A DNA stretch of 35,062 nucleotides, taken from the IMG/VR virus record IMGVR_UViG_2548876964_000015, positions 1-35,062 of that record, one strand, 5' to 3'. A program made the position numbers and the translations under genes. Shown here one piece after another: positions 6 through 35,062 of the stretch (position 1 is its first letter; every line of letters starts with the position of its first letter). A model generated the notes under the pieces. The model was not told the origin of the DNA, did no database searches, and saw nothing but the letters and a program-made list of their open reading frames with translations. The DNA is from a virus (lineage: Duplodnaviria; Heunggongvirae; Uroviricota; Caudoviricetes).

Positions 6-80
6 GATGGTGTAGCTCAGCGGTAGAGCAGTTGGCTGTTAACCAACTGGTCGGTAGTTCGAATCCACCCACCATCGCCA
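6..80 (+). tRNA. tRNA-Asn (anticodon GTT)
   Basis: Cloverleaf read by eye: acceptor 6-12 GATGGTG pairs with 70-76 CACCATC; D-stem GCTC/GAGC; anticodon stem GTTGG/CCAAC with loop CTGTTAA (GTT at 38-40); T-loop TTCGAAT; CCA encoded at 78-80. One A-C mismatch in the T-stem. Confidence 0.75.
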
Positions 81-85
81 CTTTA

Positions 86-172
86 GGGGAGTTAGTCCGT
101 AGGGGTAGCGGGGTAGACTGTAAATCTACTGTCATTGCGACTCGGGTGGTTCGACTCCATCACTCCCCACCA
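86..172 (+). tRNA. Type-II (long variable arm) tRNA-like gene, anticodon GTA (Tyr-like); D-arm irregular
   Basis: Acceptor 86-92 GGGGAGT pairs with 162-168 ACTCCCC; perfect anticodon stem GTAGA/TCTAC with loop CTGTAAA (GTA at 120-122); 15-nt variable arm; T-loop TTCGACT; CCA at 170-172. The D-arm does not fold canonically, so it may be a pseudo-tRNA. Confidence 0.5.
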
Positions 173-176
173 CATT

Positions 177-252
177 GCCGATTTAGCTCAGTTGGTAGAG
201 CAGTCGCTTTGTAAGCGAATGGTCAGCGGTTCGATCCCGTTAATCGGCACCA
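177..252 (+). tRNA. tRNA-Thr (anticodon TGT)
   Basis: Acceptor 177-183 GCCGATT pairs with 242-248 AATCGGC; D-stem GCTC/GAGC; anticodon loop TTTGTAA (TGT at 210-212); T-loop GTTCGATCC region; CCA at 250-252. Confidence 0.8.
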
Positions 253-257
253 ACATA

Positions 258-330
258 ACAGGTAAGAGCATTCTCCCTTATGGGGCCTGGCTTAAATGCA
301 TCGAGTGCTCTTACCGTTGTGATGAAGTGC
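258..330. repeat. Hairpin unit copy 1 (10-bp stem GGTAAGAGCA / TGCTCTTACC, 261-270 with 306-315)
   Basis: Shares the 20-nt block ACAGGTAAGAGCATTCTCC and the tail CCGTTGTGATGAAGTGC with the copy at 899-990. Confidence 0.45.
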
Positions 331-599
331 AGATCTTAGAAGCAACCAGAAGATAAGCATCTGGCTTCACAACATAAACCGCAGGAACGACCAATAAACG
401 GTAGTCCGTATGGAGAACACCCCGTTGAGGAAGAGGCCTGGCCGGAACCGTAACCGGCGACTGGTAATGTGTGTAAATGGAGCGAAATATGTGGGCGTTT
501 AACGGGATACGGGTTGTAACAGCGATTATTAACGGCGAACTTAAGTATTCACGTTTCGAGACAAATGAACGTGATGGGAAATGTATTGGTGTGCGGTTA

Positions 600-725
600 G
601 TAAGAGAATACGCATAACAACTACAACGTTGAGAACACTGGCGTAACGGGGTCATATCCCAATCTACGAATAAATGTTGCGTTGCCGCGTGACAACCAGT
701 GTTCTCAACATTGTGGTGAATGCAC
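600..725. repeat. Hairpin unit copy 2 (14-bp perfect stem GTTGAGAACACTGG / CCAGTGTTCTCAAC, 628-641 with 686-699)
   Basis: Loop carries GTAACGGGGTCATATCCCAATCTAC, also present at 922-946; tail CATTGTGGTGAATGCAC resembles the tails of copies 1 and 3. Confidence 0.45.
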
Positions 726-898
726 AGGCTGATGTGCCGCAACTACAGTAGTGCGCGCTTTGCGGGGCTTGCTACAACCCTGTGTCGGAGTTCAGCACCG
801 ACCATCACAGTTTGATTCTCTGGCATGAGCATAACGCTGAAATAAGTCCAGTCTGGTGCGGTCTGATCACCCGCCGTTAGCTCCACGAAACGGAGCAC

Positions 899-990
899 GT
901 AACAGGTAAGAGCATTCTCCTGTAACGGGTTCATATCCCAATCTACAGGTCCACCAAGAATGCTCTTTCCGTTGCGGTGAATGCGGCTAA
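899..990. repeat. Hairpin unit copy 3 (11-bp stem AAGAGCATTCT / AGAATGCTCTT, 908-918 with 957-967)
   Basis: Same 5-prime block as copy 1 and same loop block as copy 2; tail CCGTTGCGGTGAATGCGG. Confidence 0.45.
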
Positions 991-1125
991 GCGCACGCGG
1001 GGAAATGGTTATATCTGTCCATTATTTCTCCTTGTTTCCACGTCCACGGTGGATAACCAGCCAAAGGACACCGGGAGGAACCCGGCACCGCAGCTTTTTT
1101 ATTCGTTAAATAATGGAGTGAGAGG

Positions 1126-1344
1126 ATGCAGAACAATCCGAACAAATGTCGAACGCTATGGGTGCGGTTATATATTTATGCCGTCCTCTGTTTGATTGTG
1201 TCACTGGTTCTGTATGTTTGGCTTTTGCCAAATATGATCTCATCTAACAGCACAATACTTGTATTGTTGGGAGTCCTTCTCGCGCTCATTTACCCGGCTT
1301 TCGCAGTAGTCTTTTTTCGTGAAAAAAACCAGGAAATTAATTAA
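1126..1344 (+). CDS. Small hydrophobic membrane protein (72 aa, two predicted helices)
   Basis: ATG preceded by GAGAGG; strongly hydrophobic sequence; stop overlaps the next start (TAATG), implying translational coupling. Confidence 0.55.
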   Translation: MQNNPNKCRTLWVRLYIYAVLCLIVSLVLYVWLLPNMISSNSTILVLLGVLLALIYPAFAVVFFREKNQEIN

Positions 1345-2171
1345 TGAAAAAAACGTTGATTAGTGCAGCGATTATTTTGGGTTCTTTATGTCTGACCGGA
1401 TGCGATCGGGTAGAGCCAGGTAACGTAGGGATCAAAGTAAATAAGCTGGGGGATGATAAAGGTATCGGTGAAGTAGTTGGCGTTGGTCGCTACTGGACAG
1501 GCTTGAATACTGAAGTTTATATCTTCCCGACCTTTAAGCAAATGAAGACATACGATGAGCCGTTCAGCTTCCAGATGAGCGACGGAACAACCATTGGTTA
1601 CCACATCGGCGTAGCCTACAAGGTTGATCCAGCAAAAGTCACAACGGTATTTCAGACCTATCGCAAAGGTGTAGATGATATTACTGATACCGATCTACGC
1701 CAGAAGGTTGCAGATGCTCTGAACCGATTAGCCAGCAAAATGACCACCGACAAATTTATCGACGGTGGCAAATCTGAATTGCTTGATGCAGCCCTTAAAG
1801 ACATTCAGGAAGAAATGACGCCAATCGGCATTCAGGTGATGAGCCTCTCTTATGTAGGTAAGCCAGAATACCCGCCAACAGTTATTGACAGTATTAACGC
1901 CAAAGTCACGGCAAACCAAAAAACCCTGCAACGCGAGCAAGAGGTCAAACAACGTGAAGCAGAGGCCAACATGCTGCGCGCGGAAGCTGCCGGACAGGCT
2001 GATGCTATTCGCACAAAAGCCCAGGCCGAAGCTGATGCCATTCGTTTACGTGGTGAAGCTCTGCGCCAGAACCCCGGTGTTATGGACTTGGAAGCGATCA
2101 ACAAATGGAACGGTACATTACCGCAGTATATGACCAGTAATACCGCTGTTCCGTTTGTTCCGGTGAAATAA
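1344..2171 (+). CDS. SPFH/band-7 (stomatin-prohibitin-like) lipoprotein
   Basis: N-terminal signal peptide with lipobox LTGC; band-7-like core; C-terminal Ala/Glu/Gln-rich coiled coil. Domain call by eye only. Confidence 0.7.
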   Translation: MKKTLISAAIILGSLCLTGCDRVEPGNVGIKVNKLGDDKGIGEVVGVGRYWTGLNTEVYIFPTFKQMKTYDEPFSFQMSDGTTIGYHIGVAYKVDPAKVTTVFQTYRKGVDDITDTDLRQKVADALNRLASKMTTDKFIDGGKSELLDAALKDIQEEMTPIGIQVMSLSYVGKPEYPPTVIDSINAKVTANQKTLQREQEVKQREAEANMLRAEAAGQADAIRTKAQAEADAIRLRGEALRQNPGVMDLEAINKWNGTLPQYMTSNTAVPFVPVK

Positions 2172-2198
2172 AAGCGTAAGCAAAATTGGCAGTAATCC

Positions 2199-2274
2199 GG
2201 CCCTTTAGCTCAGTGGTTAGAGCTGGCGACTTATAATCGCACGGTCACCGGTTCAAGTCCGGTAGGGGCCACCA
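2199..2274 (+). tRNA. tRNA-Ile-like (anticodon TAT)
   Basis: Acceptor 2199-2205 GGCCCTT pairs with 2264-2270 AGGGGCC (one G-T); D-stem GCTC/GAGC; anticodon loop CTTATAA (TAT at 2232-2234); perfect T-stem ACCGG/CCGGT; CCA at 2272-2274. Confidence 0.75.
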
Positions 2275-2548
2275 TATTTGGTTGTAACACGGCGTCTGGC
2301 ACATGCGTCGTTAGCGGTCTGGTGACGTTAAAGGGGTAACCTTTCCCCTAGCTCAGGCAACAAACCAGGTAGCCGGAATGTGCAAGCCCCGTTCATAGCG
2401 TCGGACTGCGGATTCACCATCCTGGCGATTCGGTGTGACAGCCGGGAAGAGTCCGGCGCATTAATCCTGATTTTCTGGTGATGACTCATATCGTTAGGAG
2501 TGATTTGAGTATGCCGATTATATCTGACATTCAGCACGCCTGGGTGGA

Positions 2549-3924
2549 GTGCTAATGTCTGCATCCCCTCTTGAATCCATGCCAAATTCCCTTAGTGCAG
2601 AACAAGCTGTACTTGGTGGCTTAATGCTTGATAACTGCCGCTGGGATGAAGTTGCAGATCGTATAGTTGCTGATGATTTTTATACCAGTGCTCATCGTGA
2701 AATTTTCAGTGAGATGGAGAGGTTATTAAGTCATGGCAAACCGATTGATTTGATAACACTTGCTGAAGCACTTGAACAGAACGGTAAATTAGAACAGAAC
2801 GCGCCGGTGGTTTTGCGTACCTTGCGGAGATGTCAAAGAACACGCCCAGCGCGGCAAATATTTGTGCTTATGCGGATATCGTTCGTGAACGCGCGGTTGT
2901 TCGTGAAATGATTTCCGTCGCAAATGAAATAGCTGAAGCTGGATATGCGCAGGATGGCAGGGGCAGCAATGAATTGCTGGATATGGCCGAGCGCCGCGTT
3001 TTTGAAATAGCTGAAAAACGACAAAAGAGCGGTAGTGGTCCAAAAGATATCGCCAGCATTCTCGATGCAACGGTATCTCGCATAGAAGAGTTGTTTCAGC
3101 GACCGCATGATGGTGTAACGGGGCTTGATACCGGATTTACCGATCTCAATAAGAAGACGGCAGGACTTCAGGCGTCCGATCTCATTATTGTCGCCGCCCG
3201 CCCATCGATGGGGAAGACTACGTTTGCGATGAATCTCGTCGAAAATGCCGCAGTCCGTAACGATAAGCCCGTATTGGTTTTTAGCCTTGAGATGCCGAGC
3301 CACCAACTGATGATGCGCTCACTGGCTTCTCTTGCACGCGTTGATCAGACTCGTATTCGAACAGGGCAACTTAACGACGAGGATTGGGCGCGGGTTTCTG
3401 GCGCAATGGGGATTCTGTTGGACAAGCAGAATATTTTTATTGATGACTCAAGCGCCCTGACACCTACAGAGCTTCGTTCCCGCGCTCGTCGTGTTTATAA
3501 AGAAAATGGTGGTTTGAGCATGATTATGATCGACTACCTGCAACTTATGCGCGTCCCCGAGCTGCAAGATAACCGAACGCTGGAAATTGCCGAGATTTCT
3601 CGCTCACTGAAGGCTTTGGCGAAGGAATTACAAGTACCGGTGGTGGCATTGTCACAACTTAATCGATCGCTTGAACAGCGTGCGGACAAACGACCGGTAA
3701 ATTCAGATTTACGTGAATCAGGAGCAATTGAGCAGGACGCAGACCTGATCATGTTTCTGTATCGCGACGAAGTTTATCACCCGGATAGCGAAATGAAGGG
3801 CATTGCCGAGGTAATTATCGGAAAGCAACGAAATGGCCCAATTGGCACGGTGAGATTGGCTTTTAACGGCCAATACTCACGGTTTGATAACTATGCTGGT
3901 GCTGACTGGCAAGAGGATTATTAA
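2549..3924 (+). pseudogene. ban: DnaB-family replicative helicase (P1 ban-like) split by a frameshift near 2798-2810
   Basis: ORF 2549..2911 encodes the DnaB N-terminal domain (AEQAVLGGLMLDN...IDLITLAEALEQNGKLEQ); ORF 2830..3924 in the next frame encodes the rest (Walker A ARPSMGKTT, C-terminal motifs). The conserved GGFAYLAEMSKNTPSAAN is only in frame after a shift around GAACGCGCCGGTGG. Confidence 0.8.
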
Positions 3925-4922
3925 TGCAATGGAATGAGGAAAAGCCGATGAACATCCTGATCATTGGGAGAAAATTTGAAGCTATCAGTGATGTGAAAAC
4001 ATATACGGAAATGTGGGCTTACAACCTGGCCTGCGCCTTTAGTGAGGCAGGGGTAACATTGCAATACCATCGTCCATATTCCCCTGGCGTCGAAAGCCCG
4101 GAGGATTATGTTGAAGCTGTGTTGACTGCTGCGACCGCATGTTCTGCGAAGGCCATTTTGGCACCAGGATTGAGGTATTTTACTACGGTACCCAGGGAAA
4201 TAGGCATGCAACTGTGTCGCCGATTCTCTGGATGGGTAGCCCAGGTATATGACGGTTCTATGCTGGATTCGGCACCAGTCGATATTACTTTTACTGTCCG
4301 CGATGATACCTGGCGGTACCTGGATAATCCCGGCAGGTTAGAGCGTCATAATCGCTTTAACAAACATGTTGGATGGGCAGCGAATCAGGAACTGTTCCAT
4401 CTGGAAACCAAGACAGACGATGTTCTGCGTATTTTTGTAGACCACGCTGCATTTGATGTTAGTGGGTTTGATCACTCCTTAAGTATCCTTATGAACCTTC
4501 AGCGTCTGACCGTTCCGTATGAGGCCAGAACGTTGACCGATGACGGATTGGTTACCATTGATCCGGGGAATATTTCGGTAACTCCATACAGGCGGACGCC
4601 GGTGCCAGCAACCGAATTTGCAGCTGAATTGCGTAAGAGTGACGTTTTTATCGTTACGCATCCCGAAAGCCTTGGATTAACTGTACTTGAGGCGGCAATG
4701 TGCGGGGCGTTGGTATTAACGCCTCCCGATTGCCTTCCGCCAGATCGCCTGGCTTTGGTGAACCATATGGTTATCAAGTCGCGGATTGATTGGGATGAGG
4801 TTATTGCTCGCGTTGATCGCGTGAAAAATGCTGAAAAGGTCCAGTGTCACACCTGGTCGGCAATTGCGGAAAAGATGCTTGAGACGTTTATCACGCAGAA
4901 ACCGTCGCGCGGTAATGATTGA
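3924..4922 (+). CDS. Hypothetical protein with glycosyltransferase-like (GT-B) C-terminal motif
   Basis: ATG overlaps the ban stop (TAATG); motif THPESLGLTVLEAAMCGALVL resembles the E-x7-E region of GT1/GT4 enzymes. Function is inferred. Confidence 0.5.
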   Translation: MQWNEEKPMNILIIGRKFEAISDVKTYTEMWAYNLACAFSEAGVTLQYHRPYSPGVESPEDYVEAVLTAATACSAKAILAPGLRYFTTVPREIGMQLCRRFSGWVAQVYDGSMLDSAPVDITFTVRDDTWRYLDNPGRLERHNRFNKHVGWAANQELFHLETKTDDVLRIFVDHAAFDVSGFDHSLSILMNLQRLTVPYEARTLTDDGLVTIDPGNISVTPYRRTPVPATEFAAELRKSDVFIVTHPESLGLTVLEAAMCGALVLTPPDCLPPDRLALVNHMVIKSRIDWDEVIARVDRVKNAEKVQCHTWSAIAEKMLETFITQKPSRGND

Positions 4923-5301: not shown

Positions 5302-5523
5302 ATGGTTAATGCCAATCCTTGCGCACGCCCTGAATTTATCTGGCGCTTTTACTCCTGCCAGAAACGTCACTATCACTTCGTTATTGCACCGACAGAAGAT
5401 GAGGCTCGCTCTCAGCTTCCGGATGCACCCTGTATTTTCTCTGCCCGCTTTTCCACTTATTCACGCAATTCTCTCAGTTACTGGTGCCTCCCTGTTAACG
5501 CTTCTGCTCAGGAGGGACTATGA
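5302..5523 (+). CDS. icd: Small protein (73 aa) translationally coupled to the antirepressor; icd-like by position
   Basis: GAGG about 10 nt upstream of ATG; stop overlaps the ant ATG (ATGA). Position between c4-like RNA and ant matches the P1 immI layout as I recall it. Confidence 0.5.
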   Translation: MVNANPCARPEFIWRFYSCQKRHYHFVIAPTEDEARSQLPDAPCIFSARFSTYSRNSLSYWCLPVNASAQEGL

Positions 5524-6632
5524 GAACATCGTTAGTTACCCGTGAAGAGATGATCGAGGCAATTGAACAGCACACTGCCTGTATCAGTACCAGGGATATA
5601 CCTGGCGTTATTGCCAACTACTTCATGATCACCAAACAACTTTACCGGAGAAAGGACAAGAACGCGGTTCACCGTATCCTGTTGTCTGATATCCGCGAAT
5701 ACCTGCTCGAACAGGGTCATCTGAATTACGCAACCGTCGCAGCCGAAGCACGCAAGGAGGCACACAGAATGAAAGCAAATAACGTTAAATTAGAAAAAAT
5801 TCATGCACCTTCAGTTCAGGAATCGGAGCTGGTGGTTGTTCAGAATCAGTCTGATGAAATTCCCGTTCTGGAATGGCAGGGAGTACGTGTCGTGACAACC
5901 GAAACTCTTGCTAGAGGGTATGGGGTCGATGAAGCCAATATTCGCAACAATTTGTCTCGCAACCTTGACCGCTTTGAAGAAGGTAAGCATTACTTTCTTC
6001 TAACTGCTTTAAAATTAAGAGAATTTAAGAACAGAGTAACCGGAAGTTACTCTGTTGGTAAGAACGCCAGAAGCCTTACACTCTGGACAGAGCGCGGCGC
6101 TGCACGCATGTCTAAGATCGTGGACACAAATGAAGCATGGGCATTCTTTGAAAAACTGGAAGACAGCTACTTCCGGCAAAAAGAACAGCAACCGGTTGCA
6201 ATCCCCCAGACGCTTCCAGAAGCTCTGCGCCTGGCTGCCGAACTGGCTGAACAAAAGCAACTTCTGGAACAGAAAGCCCACCAGCTAAATCAGCAGCTGG
6301 TGGCCGCCGCTCCTAAGGTCGATTTTGCCGACCGGGTATCAGTAGCTAAAGGGATCCTGATTGGGAATTTTGCAAAGGTTGTTGGACTTAAGCAAAACGC
6401 GCTGTTTGCCTGGTTACGGGAGAACGGCATCCTGATAGCGTCCGGCGGACGTAAAAATGTGCCGTTTCAGCAGTACATAAACGCCGGATATTTCACGGTG
6501 AAAGAAGTGGTGCTGGATGATGAAGATGGCTACCAGATACGGTTGACGCCTCAATTAACGGGTAAAGGCCAGCAGTGGTTGACGCGTAAACTGCTCGATG
6601 CTGGCTTGTTAAAACCGGTGGCGGCTGAATAA
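5520..6632 (+). CDS. ant: Antirepressor (ORF6N/Bro-N-like middle domain plus KilA-C/Ant C-terminal domain)
   Basis: Strong SD GGAGGG; 370 aa; middle segment VLEWQGVRVVTTETLARGYGVD...FEEGKHYF and C-terminal DFADRVSVAKGILIGNFAKVVGLKQNALFAWLRENGIL are typical of phage antirepressors. Confidence 0.75.
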   Translation: MRTSLVTREEMIEAIEQHTACISTRDIPGVIANYFMITKQLYRRKDKNAVHRILLSDIREYLLEQGHLNYATVAAEARKEAHRMKANNVKLEKIHAPSVQESELVVVQNQSDEIPVLEWQGVRVVTTETLARGYGVDEANIRNNLSRNLDRFEEGKHYFLLTALKLREFKNRVTGSYSVGKNARSLTLWTERGAARMSKIVDTNEAWAFFEKLEDSYFRQKEQQPVAIPQTLPEALRLAAELAEQKQLLEQKAHQLNQQLVAAAPKVDFADRVSVAKGILIGNFAKVVGLKQNALFAWLRENGILIASGGRKNVPFQQYINAGYFTVKEVVLDDEDGYQIRLTPQLTGKGQQWLTRKLLDAGLLKPVAAE

Positions 6633-12196: not shown

Positions 12197-13333
12197 ATGA
12201 AAGCAATGGGGAATGAAGTTTATCAAAGTCAAAAATGCAAGTTGAAATATTCAAAATCTCAAATTGATAGGGCTGCTCAATTGATAAGGCACGGGTGTAG
12301 TGACGAAGAAAGGCAGCAATCTATTGAAATGATACAAAATTTCCGTGAGCTGCATCTTTATCCATTAATGCTCATGAAAAATCATTTAGCAAGAGCAGCT
12401 GCTAAGGTTGACAAGGACAAAAAGATTCTCGTTGCAAGAAGACTTAAGCGACTTTCTACCATAATAGATAAACTAGAGCGTCCTAGTCTTGATGGAGGCA
12501 GAACTAGCAATGCAATTAAATTAACACGGATGCAGGACGTTGGCGGATGTAGGGCCATTGTCAGAAACTTAGACCAGTTGATACAGCTAAAGGAACGTCT
12601 TTTAAAAAGCAAATCTGTTCATAGGATTGTTAAAGAGTATGATTATCTTACTCCCAAAGACAGCGGCTATAGTGGAATCCACCTTGCATACAGTTGCTTC
12701 GATCAGAAAGAGGATCAATATCCGTGGCGAAAAACAAAGATTGAGATACAGTTAAGAACTCAATTGCAGCATGCTTGGGCTACTAGCCTTGAAATAATTG
12801 ATACCCTTGAAGGTATCAAGCTGAAAACTTCAAGTGAAGGGCATCCAGAATGGAGACGATTTTTCTATCTAGCCGGATGTCTTGTAGCGCACGACGAAAA
12901 AGCCTGCACTCTTGATGAGCTAGTTGTATCTCAGTATGAAGGCGAGCTTAAAGAGCTGGAACGGACTTTATCTGTACGGAGGAAACTAAGCACATACACC
13001 ATCGCCTTAAATTTAACTTCTGACGCGAATTTGATTAAGAAGTTGCCAAAAAATCATAAGGGGCATTACTTAGTAACAATGAGAAATGCAGAAAACAAGC
13101 CCAATACAAAAAACAAAAAAATGTTCCTAGTGTCTGTTCGCGCATTTAAAACAAAAGAAGCAGATGAAGCCCTTGAGGCCTTAAATAAAGACGATTCTAA
13201 TCCTAATGTATTGATATCTGTTCTCGTTGCTACAGATAACATTAAGTCACTAAAAAAAGCCTACCCCAACTATTTTGGCTCAACAAACCAGTTTACAAAA
13301 TTCTTAGATAAGCATCTTCGTAACGAAGGATAG
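12197..13333 (+). CDS. RelA/SpoT-like nucleotide pyrophosphokinase, toxSAS-type with extra C-terminal domain (fused toxin-antitoxin candidate, CapRel-like)
   Basis: Synthetase-domain motifs visible: RMQDVGGCRAIV, KEYDYLTPKDSGYSGIHL, KIEIQLRTQLQHAWA. About 170 aa of unrecognised C-terminal sequence follow. Confidence 0.8.
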   Translation: MKAMGNEVYQSQKCKLKYSKSQIDRAAQLIRHGCSDEERQQSIEMIQNFRELHLYPLMLMKNHLARAAAKVDKDKKILVARRLKRLSTIIDKLERPSLDGGRTSNAIKLTRMQDVGGCRAIVRNLDQLIQLKERLLKSKSVHRIVKEYDYLTPKDSGYSGIHLAYSCFDQKEDQYPWRKTKIEIQLRTQLQHAWATSLEIIDTLEGIKLKTSSEGHPEWRRFFYLAGCLVAHDEKACTLDELVVSQYEGELKELERTLSVRRKLSTYTIALNLTSDANLIKKLPKNHKGHYLVTMRNAENKPNTKNKKMFLVSVRAFKTKEADEALEALNKDDSNPNVLISVLVATDNIKSLKKAYPNYFGSTNQFTKFLDKHLRNEG

Positions 13334-23653: not shown

Positions 23654-24985
23654 CACCCTCCACGCCCTGACGGGCGTGGATTCCTGCTACGTTCAGGCTG
23701 TCGCCTGAATCATTTCGGTGGGTTCCTGCTTCAACGGGCGGCCTGACTGCACCATCCCTCCACAGGCAAGTACGGCGTGCCCCGCCGCTAAAATGTTACG
23801 AGCGCCGTTTACATCGGCGTTCGCTGTATATCCACATACCTGGCATCTGAATTTACTTTGTGACAGGCGATTTTCTTTCGCGGTATGACCACAGCACGCG
23901 CAACGCTGGCTTGTGTACGCTGGCGGCACTGCCAGTACCTGACCGCCATGCCAGAGCTGCTTATACTCAAGCTGGCGGCGCATTTCATACCAGCCCTGAT
24001 CCAGTATCGAACGGTTTAAACCTGATTTTGCCCGGACATTGCGACCCGGCTGACTTATCGTACCCGCCGCTGACTTTGACATGTGTTTAACCTTCAAATC
24101 CTCAATGACAATCATTGCGTGGTTTTTGCTGATGATCGTTGTGACTTTATGAAGGTAGTCTCTGCGGATATTTGCGATACGGGAGTGCAGTTGCTGTATT
24201 TTGCGTTTCTGCTTCTGCCAGTTGTTGCTGAATCTGACCTTGCGGCTTAACTGGCGCTGAAGTCTCGCCAGCTTTTTCTGGTTTTTCTGGAAACTGTTTA
24301 CAGGCTCAAAGACTGTGCCATCTGACAGCGTGGCGAGCCTGGCCACGCCAGCATCCAGTCCGACCATTGATGCTGAAGGGTGAACAGGAGTGGATACTTC
24401 ACTTTCTGTCTGAATACTGATGTACCATTTACCGCAGGACTGGCTGACAGTGACATTTTTCACAATCCCCGTGACCTGCCGGCTGTTACGGTAGCGCATC
24501 CAGCCAAGTTTCGGCAGAAAAATACGGCTGTTTTCCTGGTCGAGCTTAACACCCTGCGGGTAGCGGAATGCATCATTCTGTCCCCGCTTTTTGAATCGGG
24601 GAAAAGCCGCCCGCTTCTGGAAGAAATTTTTGTAGGCCCGCTCAAGGTCTTTCAGTGACTGCTGCAATGGCTGTGAGGGAGAATCTTTAAGCCATTCGGT
24701 TTCAGTGTCTTTTTTCCACTCAACCAACCAGGAAGCCATTTTCGTGTAAGGGATGTATTTATTCCCGGCCTCATAATTCTCATTCTGAAGTGCCAGTGCA
24801 CGATTGAAAACGAAACGACAAGCTCCGGCAAAGAGCCTCATTTGACGCTCCTGTTGACCACCGGGTCTTAACTGGAATTTAAATGCTTGTAGTCGCTTCA
24901 TCCCACTATTTTAAACAAAAACAGTTAGGTGGAAAACCACGCCTTATATCCCCTCCCTGAAGGACGGGATTTTACGGCGCACCGG
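23654..24985 (-). mobile_element. IS200/IS605-family element carrying tnpB only (IS609-like), inserted right after the pro stop
   Basis: Subterminal hairpin CCACGCCC-TGAC-GGGCGTGG at 23660-23679 on the tnpB 3-prime side; no Y1 transposase (tnpA) ORF. The far boundary is approximate. Confidence 0.7.
23693..24901 (-). CDS. tnpB: TnpB (RNA-guided endonuclease, IS200/IS605 accessory protein)
   Basis: 402 aa, [22 protein letters not shown]...; C-terminal zinc-finger CxxC...CxxC and RuvC-like motifs; near-identical in my memory to E. coli K-12 IS609 TnpB (insQ/ydcM). Confidence 0.9.
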
Positions 24986-31529: not shown

Positions 31530-31895
31530 TTATGCTGCCTCTTTAATGTTGGCGGCTATCCATGCCGCCGTGTGCTGTTTAACCTGGTCCAGGTCGATGT
31601 ATGTGCCAACATATTGACTCAAGTCCTGCAAGGTACCGATAAATGCATCTGTGCTCTGATCGACGAATTTATCAGCCAGGAAATCAGCAACCAGTTTTGG
31701 CACACCATCATGTACCGAAGGTTGTTTTTCCTCGCCACTACTGCCGCCGGACGCGCCGTACCCCATCTGTTGCATGATCTGGTCAATTTCATCGCTGATA
31801 TCCAGCAACTCCATGCCACTCGCGGTAGCCGCTTTGGACATCAGAGCATCCAACTTATCGCTGAGATCCATTAACTCAATAGCTGATAGTGTCAT
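31530..31895 (-). CDS. ddrA: DdrA-like protein (121 aa)
   Basis: Position; overlaps the darA stop by 4 nt. Confidence 0.6.
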   Translation of the reverse strand: MTLSAIELMDLSDKLDALMSKAATASGMELLDISDEIDQIMQQMGYGASGGSSGEEKQPSVHDGVPKLVADFLADKFVDQSTDAFIGTLQDLSQYVGTYIDLDQVKQHTAAWIAANIKEAA

Positions 31896-33811
31896 GCCGC
31901 TACCCCCGCTTTCTGGATTGCTACCAGCAGATCAGCCAGGTGGCGAGCAGCGCCATTAACCAGCTCTTCGTTTTCCTCAAAACGTCCGGCAGCCTGAAGG
32001 GCTGCAATCGCTTCCCGGACATTGCCCCGGGCGTTACGGATCTCCGCCATGTCAGTGCTTTGCATATCCATCACGTTATTGAGATATTCAATGGCTTTAT
32101 TAGCCTCTGCATCTGCTTCGCTAACCGTTTCATCAGGCTGTGCCGGGGCCGGTTCTGGCTGAGTAATCTCACCGACTTCGGCCTGCAATGCATTGATCAT
32201 GCTCTGCACCATTTTCTCGGTGCCAGCGCCCCCCGGAAACGCAATATTGGGGAAAGTTTTTTGAAACTGAGTCTTCAGCATTACGCGGAACTCGTCTGGT
32301 GAGCTGGTGGCCAGCTCCAGAGCTTTTTGTGCATATTTGCCAAACGGACCATTAGTAAGTGTCTTCGCCAGGAAGTCGAAAGAATCCTCGCGAGGCAATA
32401 ACTTCAGGTCGTACTCACTCATTTGCTGATCAGAAAGCGGGGTATCGTAAGTAGCAATGCCGTAGCGTGCATATTCATAATACGGGTCACCTTCATCAGG
32501 GCGCGGCAGAATTGCTTTGTTACCTTCAGGTATTGCGCCAGGGGCCGCCGGACGCATTTGCAGGGCATATCGATATGCACCTACAGAGACTTCTGGTTCA
32601 GGCGAAGAGCTACCGGTATCCTCCGCTGGTTCAGGTTCGACGTTTTCCGGTTTATGTTCTTCTGGTTGGACCAGGTATTCCGATACATTACCCGCTTTAT
32701 AGGCTTTAAACAGCTTGCCGATCGCATCTGCCATGTCCACACCCTGTATGGATTTAGCCTTGATCATGTATACGCTGCCATCCGGATCGGTTAACTGGAT
32801 ATACCCTTCGCCATCCCCAATGAATTGCTTCATTGATGCACCATTACTGAGCGTCGCTTCCCCGTCCATATGCATACGATTTTTGATACTGGCAAGGCGA
32901 TCCGTCAGCGCGCGAGAGTGCCCACCAGTCATCCCCGCAGGAGCAATGGTATCGCGCCCACCAGTGCGATTGAGCTGATCAATCTCCGCCTGCAAACGCT
33001 CATTTTCTTGATAAAGAGAATCCGCTTCCGAAGCAACCACGTTAATTTTCTGCTCCAGATCTGCCTTCTGGCCTTCTACCGCTGCCACCTGATCCGCGAG
33101 GTCGCTCATGGCATCCTCTTTCTGGTCACTGTCAGCCTGTAGTTGGGTTATTTCATCAACCAGGGCTTTTTTCTTCTTCTGCGCACGCTGGAATTTTGCC
33201 GAGTTTTTCTCTGCAAGGTTGGCAAGTTTCATGGTGACCTGCGCCAGCGTCATATCACGTCCACTCATCGGAGCAACGGTATGAGTAACGTCTTTTTTAT
33301 TCAGTAAGAACTGGAAAGCAATCAGCGTATCGCTATTGGTGATCCGGTTTTCCGCTGTCGGGCTATGAAACAGAATGCTGATAGTCTGACCATCACTGAG
33401 CGGAATAATGGCTGGCAGAACCGGCAGCCCGTTAACGTTACGCGCCCGGCCAATTTCAGCCCCGCCGATCGCGCGTGCACCGTTCTGGGCCACGTCCCCC
33501 GTTTTATCACTCCCCGCAGAGATTCCGGTACCATTCAGCTTCTGGTTCAATGCCCGGACAAATGCCTGCATGGTCCGGTGTAGCTGCAAACGAGTAGAAC
33601 TAATCGCCTCCAGTAAATCCGTAGCACACCAGTGGATCGGCGTGTCATAGAAGAACGTAGCCTCGATTTCCTCCAGGGTGTTGGATTCCGTCATCAGATA
33701 GCGGTCCTCACCGGCCATTAATGCGCGATATTCATCATCAGTCACTGGCGGGGGAAGCACGTCAAGCCCAGGCTTGATCGCCACCCCTTTATTGATATTG
33801 AACTGTTCCAT
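31892..33811 (-). CDS. darA: DarA-like internal head / anti-restriction protein (639 aa)
   Basis: Size and position; central coiled coil. Confidence 0.7.
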   Translation of the reverse strand: MEQFNINKGVAIKPGLDVLPPPVTDDEYRALMAGEDRYLMTESNTLEEIEATFFYDTPIHWCATDLLEAISSTRLQLHRTMQAFVRALNQKLNGTGISAGSDKTGDVAQNGARAIGGAEIGRARNVNGLPVLPAIIPLSDGQTISILFHSPTAENRITNSDTLIAFQFLLNKKDVTHTVAPMSGRDMTLAQVTMKLANLAEKNSAKFQRAQKKKKALVDEITQLQADSDQKEDAMSDLADQVAAVEGQKADLEQKINVVASEADSLYQENERLQAEIDQLNRTGGRDTIAPAGMTGGHSRALTDRLASIKNRMHMDGEATLSNGASMKQFIGDGEGYIQLTDPDGSVYMIKAKSIQGVDMADAIGKLFKAYKAGNVSEYLVQPEEHKPENVEPEPAEDTGSSSPEPEVSVGAYRYALQMRPAAPGAIPEGNKAILPRPDEGDPYYEYARYGIATYDTPLSDQQMSEYDLKLLPREDSFDFLAKTLTNGPFGKYAQKALELATSSPDEFRVMLKTQFQKTFPNIAFPGGAGTEKMVQSMINALQAEVGEITQPEPAPAQPDETVSEADAEANKAIEYLNNVMDMQSTDMAEIRNARGNVREAIAALQAAGRFEENEELVNGAARHLADLLVAIQKAGVAA

Positions 33812-33812
33812 G

Positions 33813-34424
33813 TTAATTTCCTGCTTTCAGTTGCTTAAGACGGCGTTTGAGTTCGCCATTTCGGGCCTTTTCGTTATTGAGTCGGCCTGTCTCCTTATCC
33901 AGCTTCGCCCGCAAATCAGTGATCTGCTGTTGATTGAAAGACACCGAGTTCTGCGCTGATTTATAAGCGGCAACCACCTGAGCATTCCGCTGTTTTGCCT
34001 CTTGCAGGCGCTGAAAGTTGGATTTTACTGCCGGTTTCTTGTCTACCGGATTGGCAACACGTTTCGCTTTGGCGATCAGTGATTTCTGGAATTTTGCGGA
34101 GTTTTTGCGGGCCGCTTGCCCCATGACGGTACCAAGCGTCTTGATATCCGGCGACTGAGCGTTAGGAATAGCTTTTCCATTCAGCCTCACAGACGATATA
34201 TCGCCAGTATCGTTTACCTGTATGGCAAGAATTTGTCCGTCGTTAAGAACCAGCTTTGCGGTTTTAACTTTAACGCCATCTTTCGTTGTTGCGCGGTTGC
34301 TGGAGTCAACCTCAATTACCGTAACACCGGTTTTATTGATCGCCGCGATAAGGGATTTCAGCCCCTTTTCATTAACCTGGTCAAAATCGACCGTTGCATA
34401 CTTATTTTTCGTCATCTGACACAT
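33813..34424 (-). CDS. hdf: Hdf-like protein (203 aa)
   Basis: Position upstream of darA; an alternative start at 34415 has a better SD. Confidence 0.6.
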   Translation of the reverse strand: MCQMTKNKYATVDFDQVNEKGLKSLIAAINKTGVTVIEVDSSNRATTKDGVKVKTAKLVLNDGQILAIQVNDTGDISSVRLNGKAIPNAQSPDIKTLGTVMGQAARKNSAKFQKSLIAKAKRVANPVDKKPAVKSNFQRLQEAKQRNAQVVAAYKSAQNSVSFNQQQITDLRAKLDKETGRLNNEKARNGELKRRLKQLKAGN

Positions 34425-34590
34425 CCTGTGCGAGATTTATTACGTAACTTCTGCGGATTTGCTGAGTAACAGGGAAAATCCGATACAACGGGTTAATGAA
34501 CGAGTCGCCATGCGTAACCATGACGTTGAAATGCCACAGCCGTTCTCCTTTACCCATATATTCAGTGGGTATGTACAACCATTCACTGTT

Positions 34591-35062
34591 TGAACCGCCC
34601 CGGAAATCCTGGAGACTAAACTCCCTGAGAAAAGAGGTAAAACAGGATGACTAAAAAATACTCGTTTTTCCCCCGAAGTCCGTCAGCGGGCGATTCGTAT
34701 GGTTCTGGAAAGTCAGGATGAATATGACTCACAGTGGGCGGCAATTTGTTCCATTGCCCCAAAGATTGGCTGTACGCCGGAGACTCTGCGTGTCTGGGTT
34801 CGCCAGCATGAGCGGGATACCGGGGGCGGTGATGGTGGGGCTCACCAGCGCTGAACGTCAGCGTCTGAAAGAGCTGGAACGTGAAAATCGTGAACTGCGC
34901 CGCAGTAACGATATCCTTCGCCAGGCTTCCGCTTATTTTGTCGAAGGCGGAGTTCGACCGCCTCTGGAAAAAAATGATGCCACTGCTGGATAAGCTGCGT
35001 GAGCAGGTACGGGGTCGGACCGGTTGCAGCGAACTGCATATTCGCCCCGTCAACGTATTACC
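34591..35062 (+). mobile_element. IS3-family insertion sequence, left end (runs off the window)
   Basis: Terminus TGAACCGCCCCGG at 34591; orfA-type HTH and leucine-zipper segments; A7 slippery run at 34968-34974; second-frame ORF starting [11 protein letters not shown] continues to the window edge. Confidence 0.7.
34647..34993 (+). pseudogene. IS3-family orfA interrupted by two single-base frameshifts
   Basis: ATG frame stops after 24 codons; HTH segment ([20 protein letters not shown]...) is in the +1 frame and the zipper segment ([33 protein letters not shown]) in the +2 frame. The shifts fall in an A6 run (34653-34658) and a G4 run near GGTGGGGCT. Confidence 0.6.

Follow-up and report, generated by a model that had tools for sequence, protein, structure and literature searches.

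Does the insertion sequence (IS) at the right-hand end of this P1-like DNA stand outside the dar operon as an immobile relic, or does it lie within the operon as an element that arrived recently and intact? The whole stretch that was analysed, here called the window, is 35,062 nucleotides long and represents a P1-like phage-plasmid of the type found in Shiga-toxin E. coli. An earlier sequence-only reading had described a decayed, probably immobile IS3-family element just upstream of the darA operon, and had suggested that it might have displaced or re-wired expression of the antirestriction genes. The P1 dar operon encodes LydA and LydB as well as antirestriction functions; LydB antagonises the LydA holin, and phages with amber mutations in lydB lyse prematurely (PMC9025707). 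When lydB is knocked down, efficiency of plating falls to 0.023 (PMC10695390).

Position and identity of the element

Two homologies meet at the junction. Within the last 1263 bases of the window, those up to 34591 are 98-99.9% identical to P1, P7, RCS47 and their relatives beneath darA, hdf and lydB, whereas those from ~34584 on match the IS629/IS1203 of Stx phages and of E. coli records numbering in the thousands. Sequence matching puts the end of P1 homology at 34591 and the beginning of IS629/IS1203 homology at ~34584-34591, a clean division into a P1-like part and an IS629/IS1203 part. The element opens with TGAACCGCCCCGG, and its left inverted repeat (IRL; Table 1) contains no indels. 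Only 472 of the 1310 bp of the element are in the window, with the DDE domain and the right end lying beyond it; the domain (Pfam rve, rve_3) is present in the copy at the same site in p08_4347-1, a plasmid of E. coli O111:H8 strain 08-4347 (NZ_CP077546.1). The terminus at 34591 proposed from the letters alone is borne out by the switch of homology and by the identity of IRL, the assignment to the IS3 family is sharpened to IS629/IS1203 by reference comparison, and the distance to hdf, put at about 170 bp, measures 167 bp from the hdf ATG at 34424.

In P1 (AF234172), the genes follow one another on one strand in the order LPdar-lydA-lydB-hdf-darA-ddrA-ddrB, and the end of lydB shares 23 bp with the start of hdf. 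What remains of lydB in the window is collinear with P1, together with hdf and darA; ddrA and ddrB were seen, both intact, in p08_4347-1 sequence identical to the window. A 58-aa minus-strand ORF at 34402-34578 corresponds to positions 90-147 of the 147 in Pfam LydB (PF16084, E 7.7e-37) and also to PHROG 1898, ‘lysis determining protein’. Judged by these alignments, the IS lies within the dar operon, splitting lydB between codons 86 and 87, and its transposase genes are oriented opposite to the operon. The sequence-only reading had set the element just upstream of the operon; the P1 map and Pfam LydB move it inside. The segment 34425-34590 is neither promoter nor intergenic DNA: it is the 3' end of lydB by P1 annotation and Pfam LydB, and contains no intact lyd genes and no promoter of theirs. 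The P1 map behind that reading was right in placing the IS between hdf and the place of lydA, most of lydB and LPdar; lydA, LPdar and the 5' part of lydB lie beyond the element.

These missing parts lie outside the window and were located through p08_4347-1. This plasmid has an identical junction followed by a complete 1310-bp IS, with an intact programmed-frameshift transposase, its frameshift annotated, and GTT on both flanks. Beyond the IS come lydB codons 1-86, then lydA, then the exact LPdar 19-mer. The window contains only the left GTT, the right-hand copy being outside it.

Table 1. Coordinates of the IS element and of the dar genes beside it in the window
Feature	Position	Strand	Basis or remark
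IS629/IS1203 (IS3 family), left 472 bp	34591..35062	+	full element 1310 bp; cut by the window end
IRL of IS629, 25 bp	34591..34615	+	base-for-base equal to annotated ‘inverted repeat from left end of IS629’, AP000422
orfA (HTH transposase N-terminal protein)	34647..34980 (end approximate)	+	frame broken, as the sequence is given, by extra bases at 34653, 34837 and 34941
ALIL pseudoknot RF01497, frameshift-stimulating RNA of IS3-family elements	34930..35049	+	85.9 bits, gathering score 50
GTT, left copy of 3-bp target-site duplication (AAC = lydB codon 86)	34588..34590		p08_4347-1 GTT/GTT vs single GTT in P1
lydB 3' remnant (codons 86-147 and stop), overlapping hdf start	34402..34590	-	Pfam, PHROG, P1 annotation
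hdf, 203 aa, the intact gene next downstream of the IS	33813..34424	-	ORF list, P1 annotation, Pfam DarA_N, PHROG ‘Hdf-like antirestriction’
darA, 639 aa, intact	31892..33811	-	ORF list, P1 annotation; Pfam DarA_N and DarA_C on identical p08_4347-1 gene

Predicted consequences for lysis and the dar operon

In the lydB frame, the end of the IS reads TGA, an immediate stop, so that LydB would be cut to residues 1-86. By analogy with the lydB amber mutants of P1, an antiholin truncated in this way is expected to cause early lysis. The genes beyond the element, hdf-darA-ddrA-ddrB, have a single annotated promoter, from which 1.3 kb of antisense IS that is not translated would now divide them; polarity should lower their expression, weakening antirestriction and the normal control of head size. 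Re-wiring of dar expression by the insertion, as had been suggested, is plausible as a prediction. Phages without Hdf or DarA exclude the other Dar proteins from packaging, and normal heads drop from ~80% to ~15% (PMC12810830).

The scans brought up no substitute promoter for these genes. Sigma-70-like matches in and around the IS did not rise above chance, and no alternative promoter was found between the IS and hdf. The LPdar 19-mer had no match with up to 2 mismatches near hdf and one chance-level match elsewhere; as a motif it is too narrow for other P1 late promoters, so that this absence is weak evidence. The P1 annotation (AF234172) gives no alternative promoter in front of hdf. The promoter element that IS3-family members carry in IRL faces inward.

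An insertion that is real and intact could still have little effect on the dar genes if late transcripts from LPdar continue across the 1.3 kb of the IS, leaving only lydB affected. The antisense strand of the element would allow this, since a terminator scan through it found no site above chance, the sole match being a weak 5-bp stem at IRR. As no convincing intrinsic terminator was found in the IS, polarity, if it occurs, would have to depend on Rho. However, 1.3 kb left untranslated after a premature stop usually does cause Rho-dependent polarity in E. coli, and no alternative promoter, found or annotated in P1, lies between the IS and hdf to make up for it. We consider read-through of this kind unlikely, and lowered expression of hdf-darA-ddrA-ddrB the better expectation.

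Nine single-base differences at the window end

Over its 472 bp, the window copy shows no substitution and nine single-base indels against both the IS629 of VT2-Sakai (AP000422) and the IS1203 of p08_4347-1. Eight are insertions, at 34633, 34639, 34653, 34837, 34941, 34968, 35006 and 35043, and one, at 35024, is a deletion; they fall before the orfA ATG (two), in orfA itself (four) and in the orfB part (three). At six of the nine positions a homopolymer run gains a base; the other three are not homopolymer changes. The sequence-only reading had ascribed the broken orfA to two single-base insertions in homopolymer runs. Those two are there, the A6 run at 34653-34658 and the G4 run at 34837-34840 each exceeding its length in intact copies by one base and each breaking orfA, but they are two among nine indels rather than the full count. 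As given, orfA is scattered over three frames when its three-frame translation is compared with the intact 108-aa OrfA of p08_4347-1; the latter matches Pfam HTH_Tnp_1 (E 2.4e-12), and the window fragments have no Pfam match.

A separate observation concerns the extra A at 34968, which turns the slippery A6 of the programmed -1 frameshift into A7 (34968-34974) and alone would fuse orfA and orfB in frame. It is most likely another homopolymer error.

The view that the IS is genuinely decayed, nine real mutations having inactivated the transposase and left an immobile relic, draws on the breaks in the sequence as given: besides orfA, the orfB part is interrupted at 35006, 35024 and 35043, and the ALIL pseudoknot falls from 121.5 bits in the intact copy to 85.9, five of the window indels being departures from the Rfam consensus. 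Their distribution argues against it. From 5459 to 34632 (29,174 bp), the window does not differ at all from p08_4347-1, which carries an intact copy at the same site, and all nine indels are crowded into the final 430 bp, for which the chance under uniform placement along the aligned stretch is ~3e-17. Real decay would be expected to bring substitutions, and time for the flank to diverge; neither is seen, and the indels are therefore read as error. Counting against error, the start of the window has no cluster comparable to that at its end.

Other assemblies point to error. The draft contigs JHHR01000045.1 and JHHT01000063.1 (NCBI) have the same lydB-IS junction with no mismatches and show the same nine gaps when aligned with the window, from which it follows that the indels are peculiar to the window; they are absent from all three independent assemblies of the junction. 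Among ~25,000 IS1203/IS629 places in 5,426 complete E. coli genomes, none exceeds 98.2% identity to the window copy, and no other IS1203 copy shares the nine indels. The preponderance of lengthened base runs is typical of read errors, and the same-site copy has moved between sister plasmids (below). A decayed copy, with mutations that three other assemblies of its junction do not reproduce and with no substitutions, is not supported by these comparisons, and we hold it to be highly improbable. From assembled sequences rather than from reads or quality values, we strongly infer that the nine indels came about through error, in the sequence or its assembly, within a terminal stretch derived from a repeat; the failure of orfA to stay open in the window is attributed to such error, the p08_4347-1 copy being intact.

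That the junction itself is an assembly chimera, a contig end joined to a read from another IS copy, is barely conceivable: the IS part is visibly poorer in quality than the remaining window and IS1203 is multi-copy, with up to 52 places per genome, but the complete plasmid has the identical junction with both IS ends and a matching 3-bp target duplication, the two draft contigs have it as well, and the first 42 bp of the IS beside the junction are error-free.

We thus return to a recent insertion of a structurally intact IS629/IS1203 at codon 86/87 of lydB, with the window indels arising from sequence or assembly error and not from biological decay, as the very probable explanation. In this account, the DDE transposase of IS629/IS1203 would have inserted the element into lydB, in a P1-like phage-plasmid like those of EHEC O111:H8, producing the GTT duplication, and the breaks in orfA, orfB and the ALIL pseudoknot would be errors in the repeat-derived end of the window.

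Occurrence of the junction

The lydB-IS junction was found in one of 5,426 complete E. coli genomes and in the two draft assemblies, and had no match in 50,697 phage records or 72,556 PLSDB plasmids. The exact junction was likewise without a match in IMG/VR and in the species representatives of GTDB, and the version with the errors had none in JGI metagenomes; exact-protein searches with an ORF specific to the errors and with the frameshifted ban fragment gave nothing or unrelated short contigs. With p08_4347-1, the window shares insertion site, orientation and flank; it differs in that its copy is cut short and carries the indels, where the plasmid copy is complete and free of them. The lydB::IS1203 insertion with an intact element is already deposited and annotated in RefSeq. 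The contig DBIZHX010000043.1 (34,501 bp), whose end near the junction suggested a sibling, was rejected as unrelated: its SNPs are of the P1 type, and it breaks off 13 bp short of the junction.

The IS629 of VT2-Sakai resembles the window copy in the 25-bp IRL, orfA, the A-run slippery site and the ALIL pseudoknot. It is inserted elsewhere, adjoining the lysis genes of an Stx2 phage, and the nine indels are a feature of the window copy. STEC, O111:H8 included, commonly carry P1-like phage-plasmids, and insertions of IS629/IS1203 in their mobile elements are routine (PMC13596339).

Movement between sister plasmids

Comparison of the plasmid p08_4347-1 (101,763 bp) with p08_4455-1 (NZ_CP077541.1; 101,761 bp) shows no differences beyond the place of the IS, a 2-bp deletion in lydB and one SNP. 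The first has IS1203 in lydB; the second has it in an icd-like gene instead.

In p08_4455-1 (positions 3604-4045), lydB is free of the IS and has lost 2 bp, the AA of GAAAAC, at the very site that IS1203 had targeted (~34588-34592 of the window), which frameshifts the gene. This deletion is likely to be the scar of an imprecise excision, accompanied by insertion of the IS elsewhere. Far from being immobile, as had been thought probable, the lydB copy has by this comparison evidently been mobile in the p08_4347-1/p08_4455-1 lineage. EHEC O111:H8 reportedly possesses IEE, an IS-excision enhancer that promotes excision of IS3-family elements with deletions from a few nucleotides upward (PMC9397093, PMC9943667).

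Other features of the window

Several features away from the junction were recorded. At 2791-2795, a 5-bp tandem duplication (AGAAC) in ban, which encodes a dnaB-like helicase, frameshifts the gene relative to p08_4455-1, p08_4347-1 and the 2015C-3101 plasmid. At 5404-5778, the ban-side icd/ant module runs directly into the c1-side icd/ant module, with the crossover between 5459 and 5716. The window thereby skips the ~25 kb that p08_4347-1, like the complete O111:H8 plasmids, has between the two icd/ant repeats, including tail genes, lpa and pacAB. The ban duplication and this skip might be real or might be errors. The ban-icd-ant-c1 adjacency is also present in two NCBI draft contigs, and the skip may therefore reflect genuine structural variation rather than a chimeric join.

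On the plus strand at ~12206-13333, a gene with a RelA/SpoT domain lies between the 213-aa gene that follows ref and an 82-aa gene; in three related P1-like contigs, a SIR2_2-domain gene takes its place, which suggests that the position is a variable, possibly defence-related, cargo slot. On the minus strand at ~23693-24901, the annotation of the identical p08_4347-1 sequence gives a gene for an InsQ/TnpB-family RNA-guided endonuclease between the head-processing protease gene and lyz.

Discussion

The element and its position are both known, and the case adds one more EHEC prophage gene interrupted by IS629/IS1203 through a process that is well documented. Its methodological lesson is that pseudogenisation should not be concluded from frame breaks limited to a sequence end that derives from a repeat.

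Disruptions in the 5' part of the same operon have precedents in the darA-operon and lydB amber mutants of P1 (Iida et al. 1987, 1998; Schmidt et al. 1996, as cited in PMC9025707), which lead one to expect premature lysis, loss of antirestriction and small heads. Those mutants belong to laboratory P1, whereas the window has a natural IS insertion in a P1-like EHEC plasmid.

Some classical darA mutants of P1 are themselves IS insertions. Because the insertion is in lydB, the timing of lysis would be affected along with dar expression. If dar expression were lost, the other Dar proteins would go unpackaged and small heads would predominate (PMC12810830).

The sister plasmids add the lesson that IS1203 can move on a very short timescale. 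Tentatively, and as a possibility that we do not favour, IS1203 in lydB may act as a fast and partly reversible switch on a P1-like phage-plasmid within one EHEC O111:H8 lineage: insertion would put the antiholin out of action, and probably also the genes for antirestriction and head size; excision, presumably helped by IEE, would take the element out again but could leave behind a 2-bp scar that shifts the reading frame, as p08_4455-1 shows, with the element inserting anew in icd. If such a switch operates, isolates that differ only at the level of an outbreak would differ in whether their P1-like prophage lyses normally and evades restriction.
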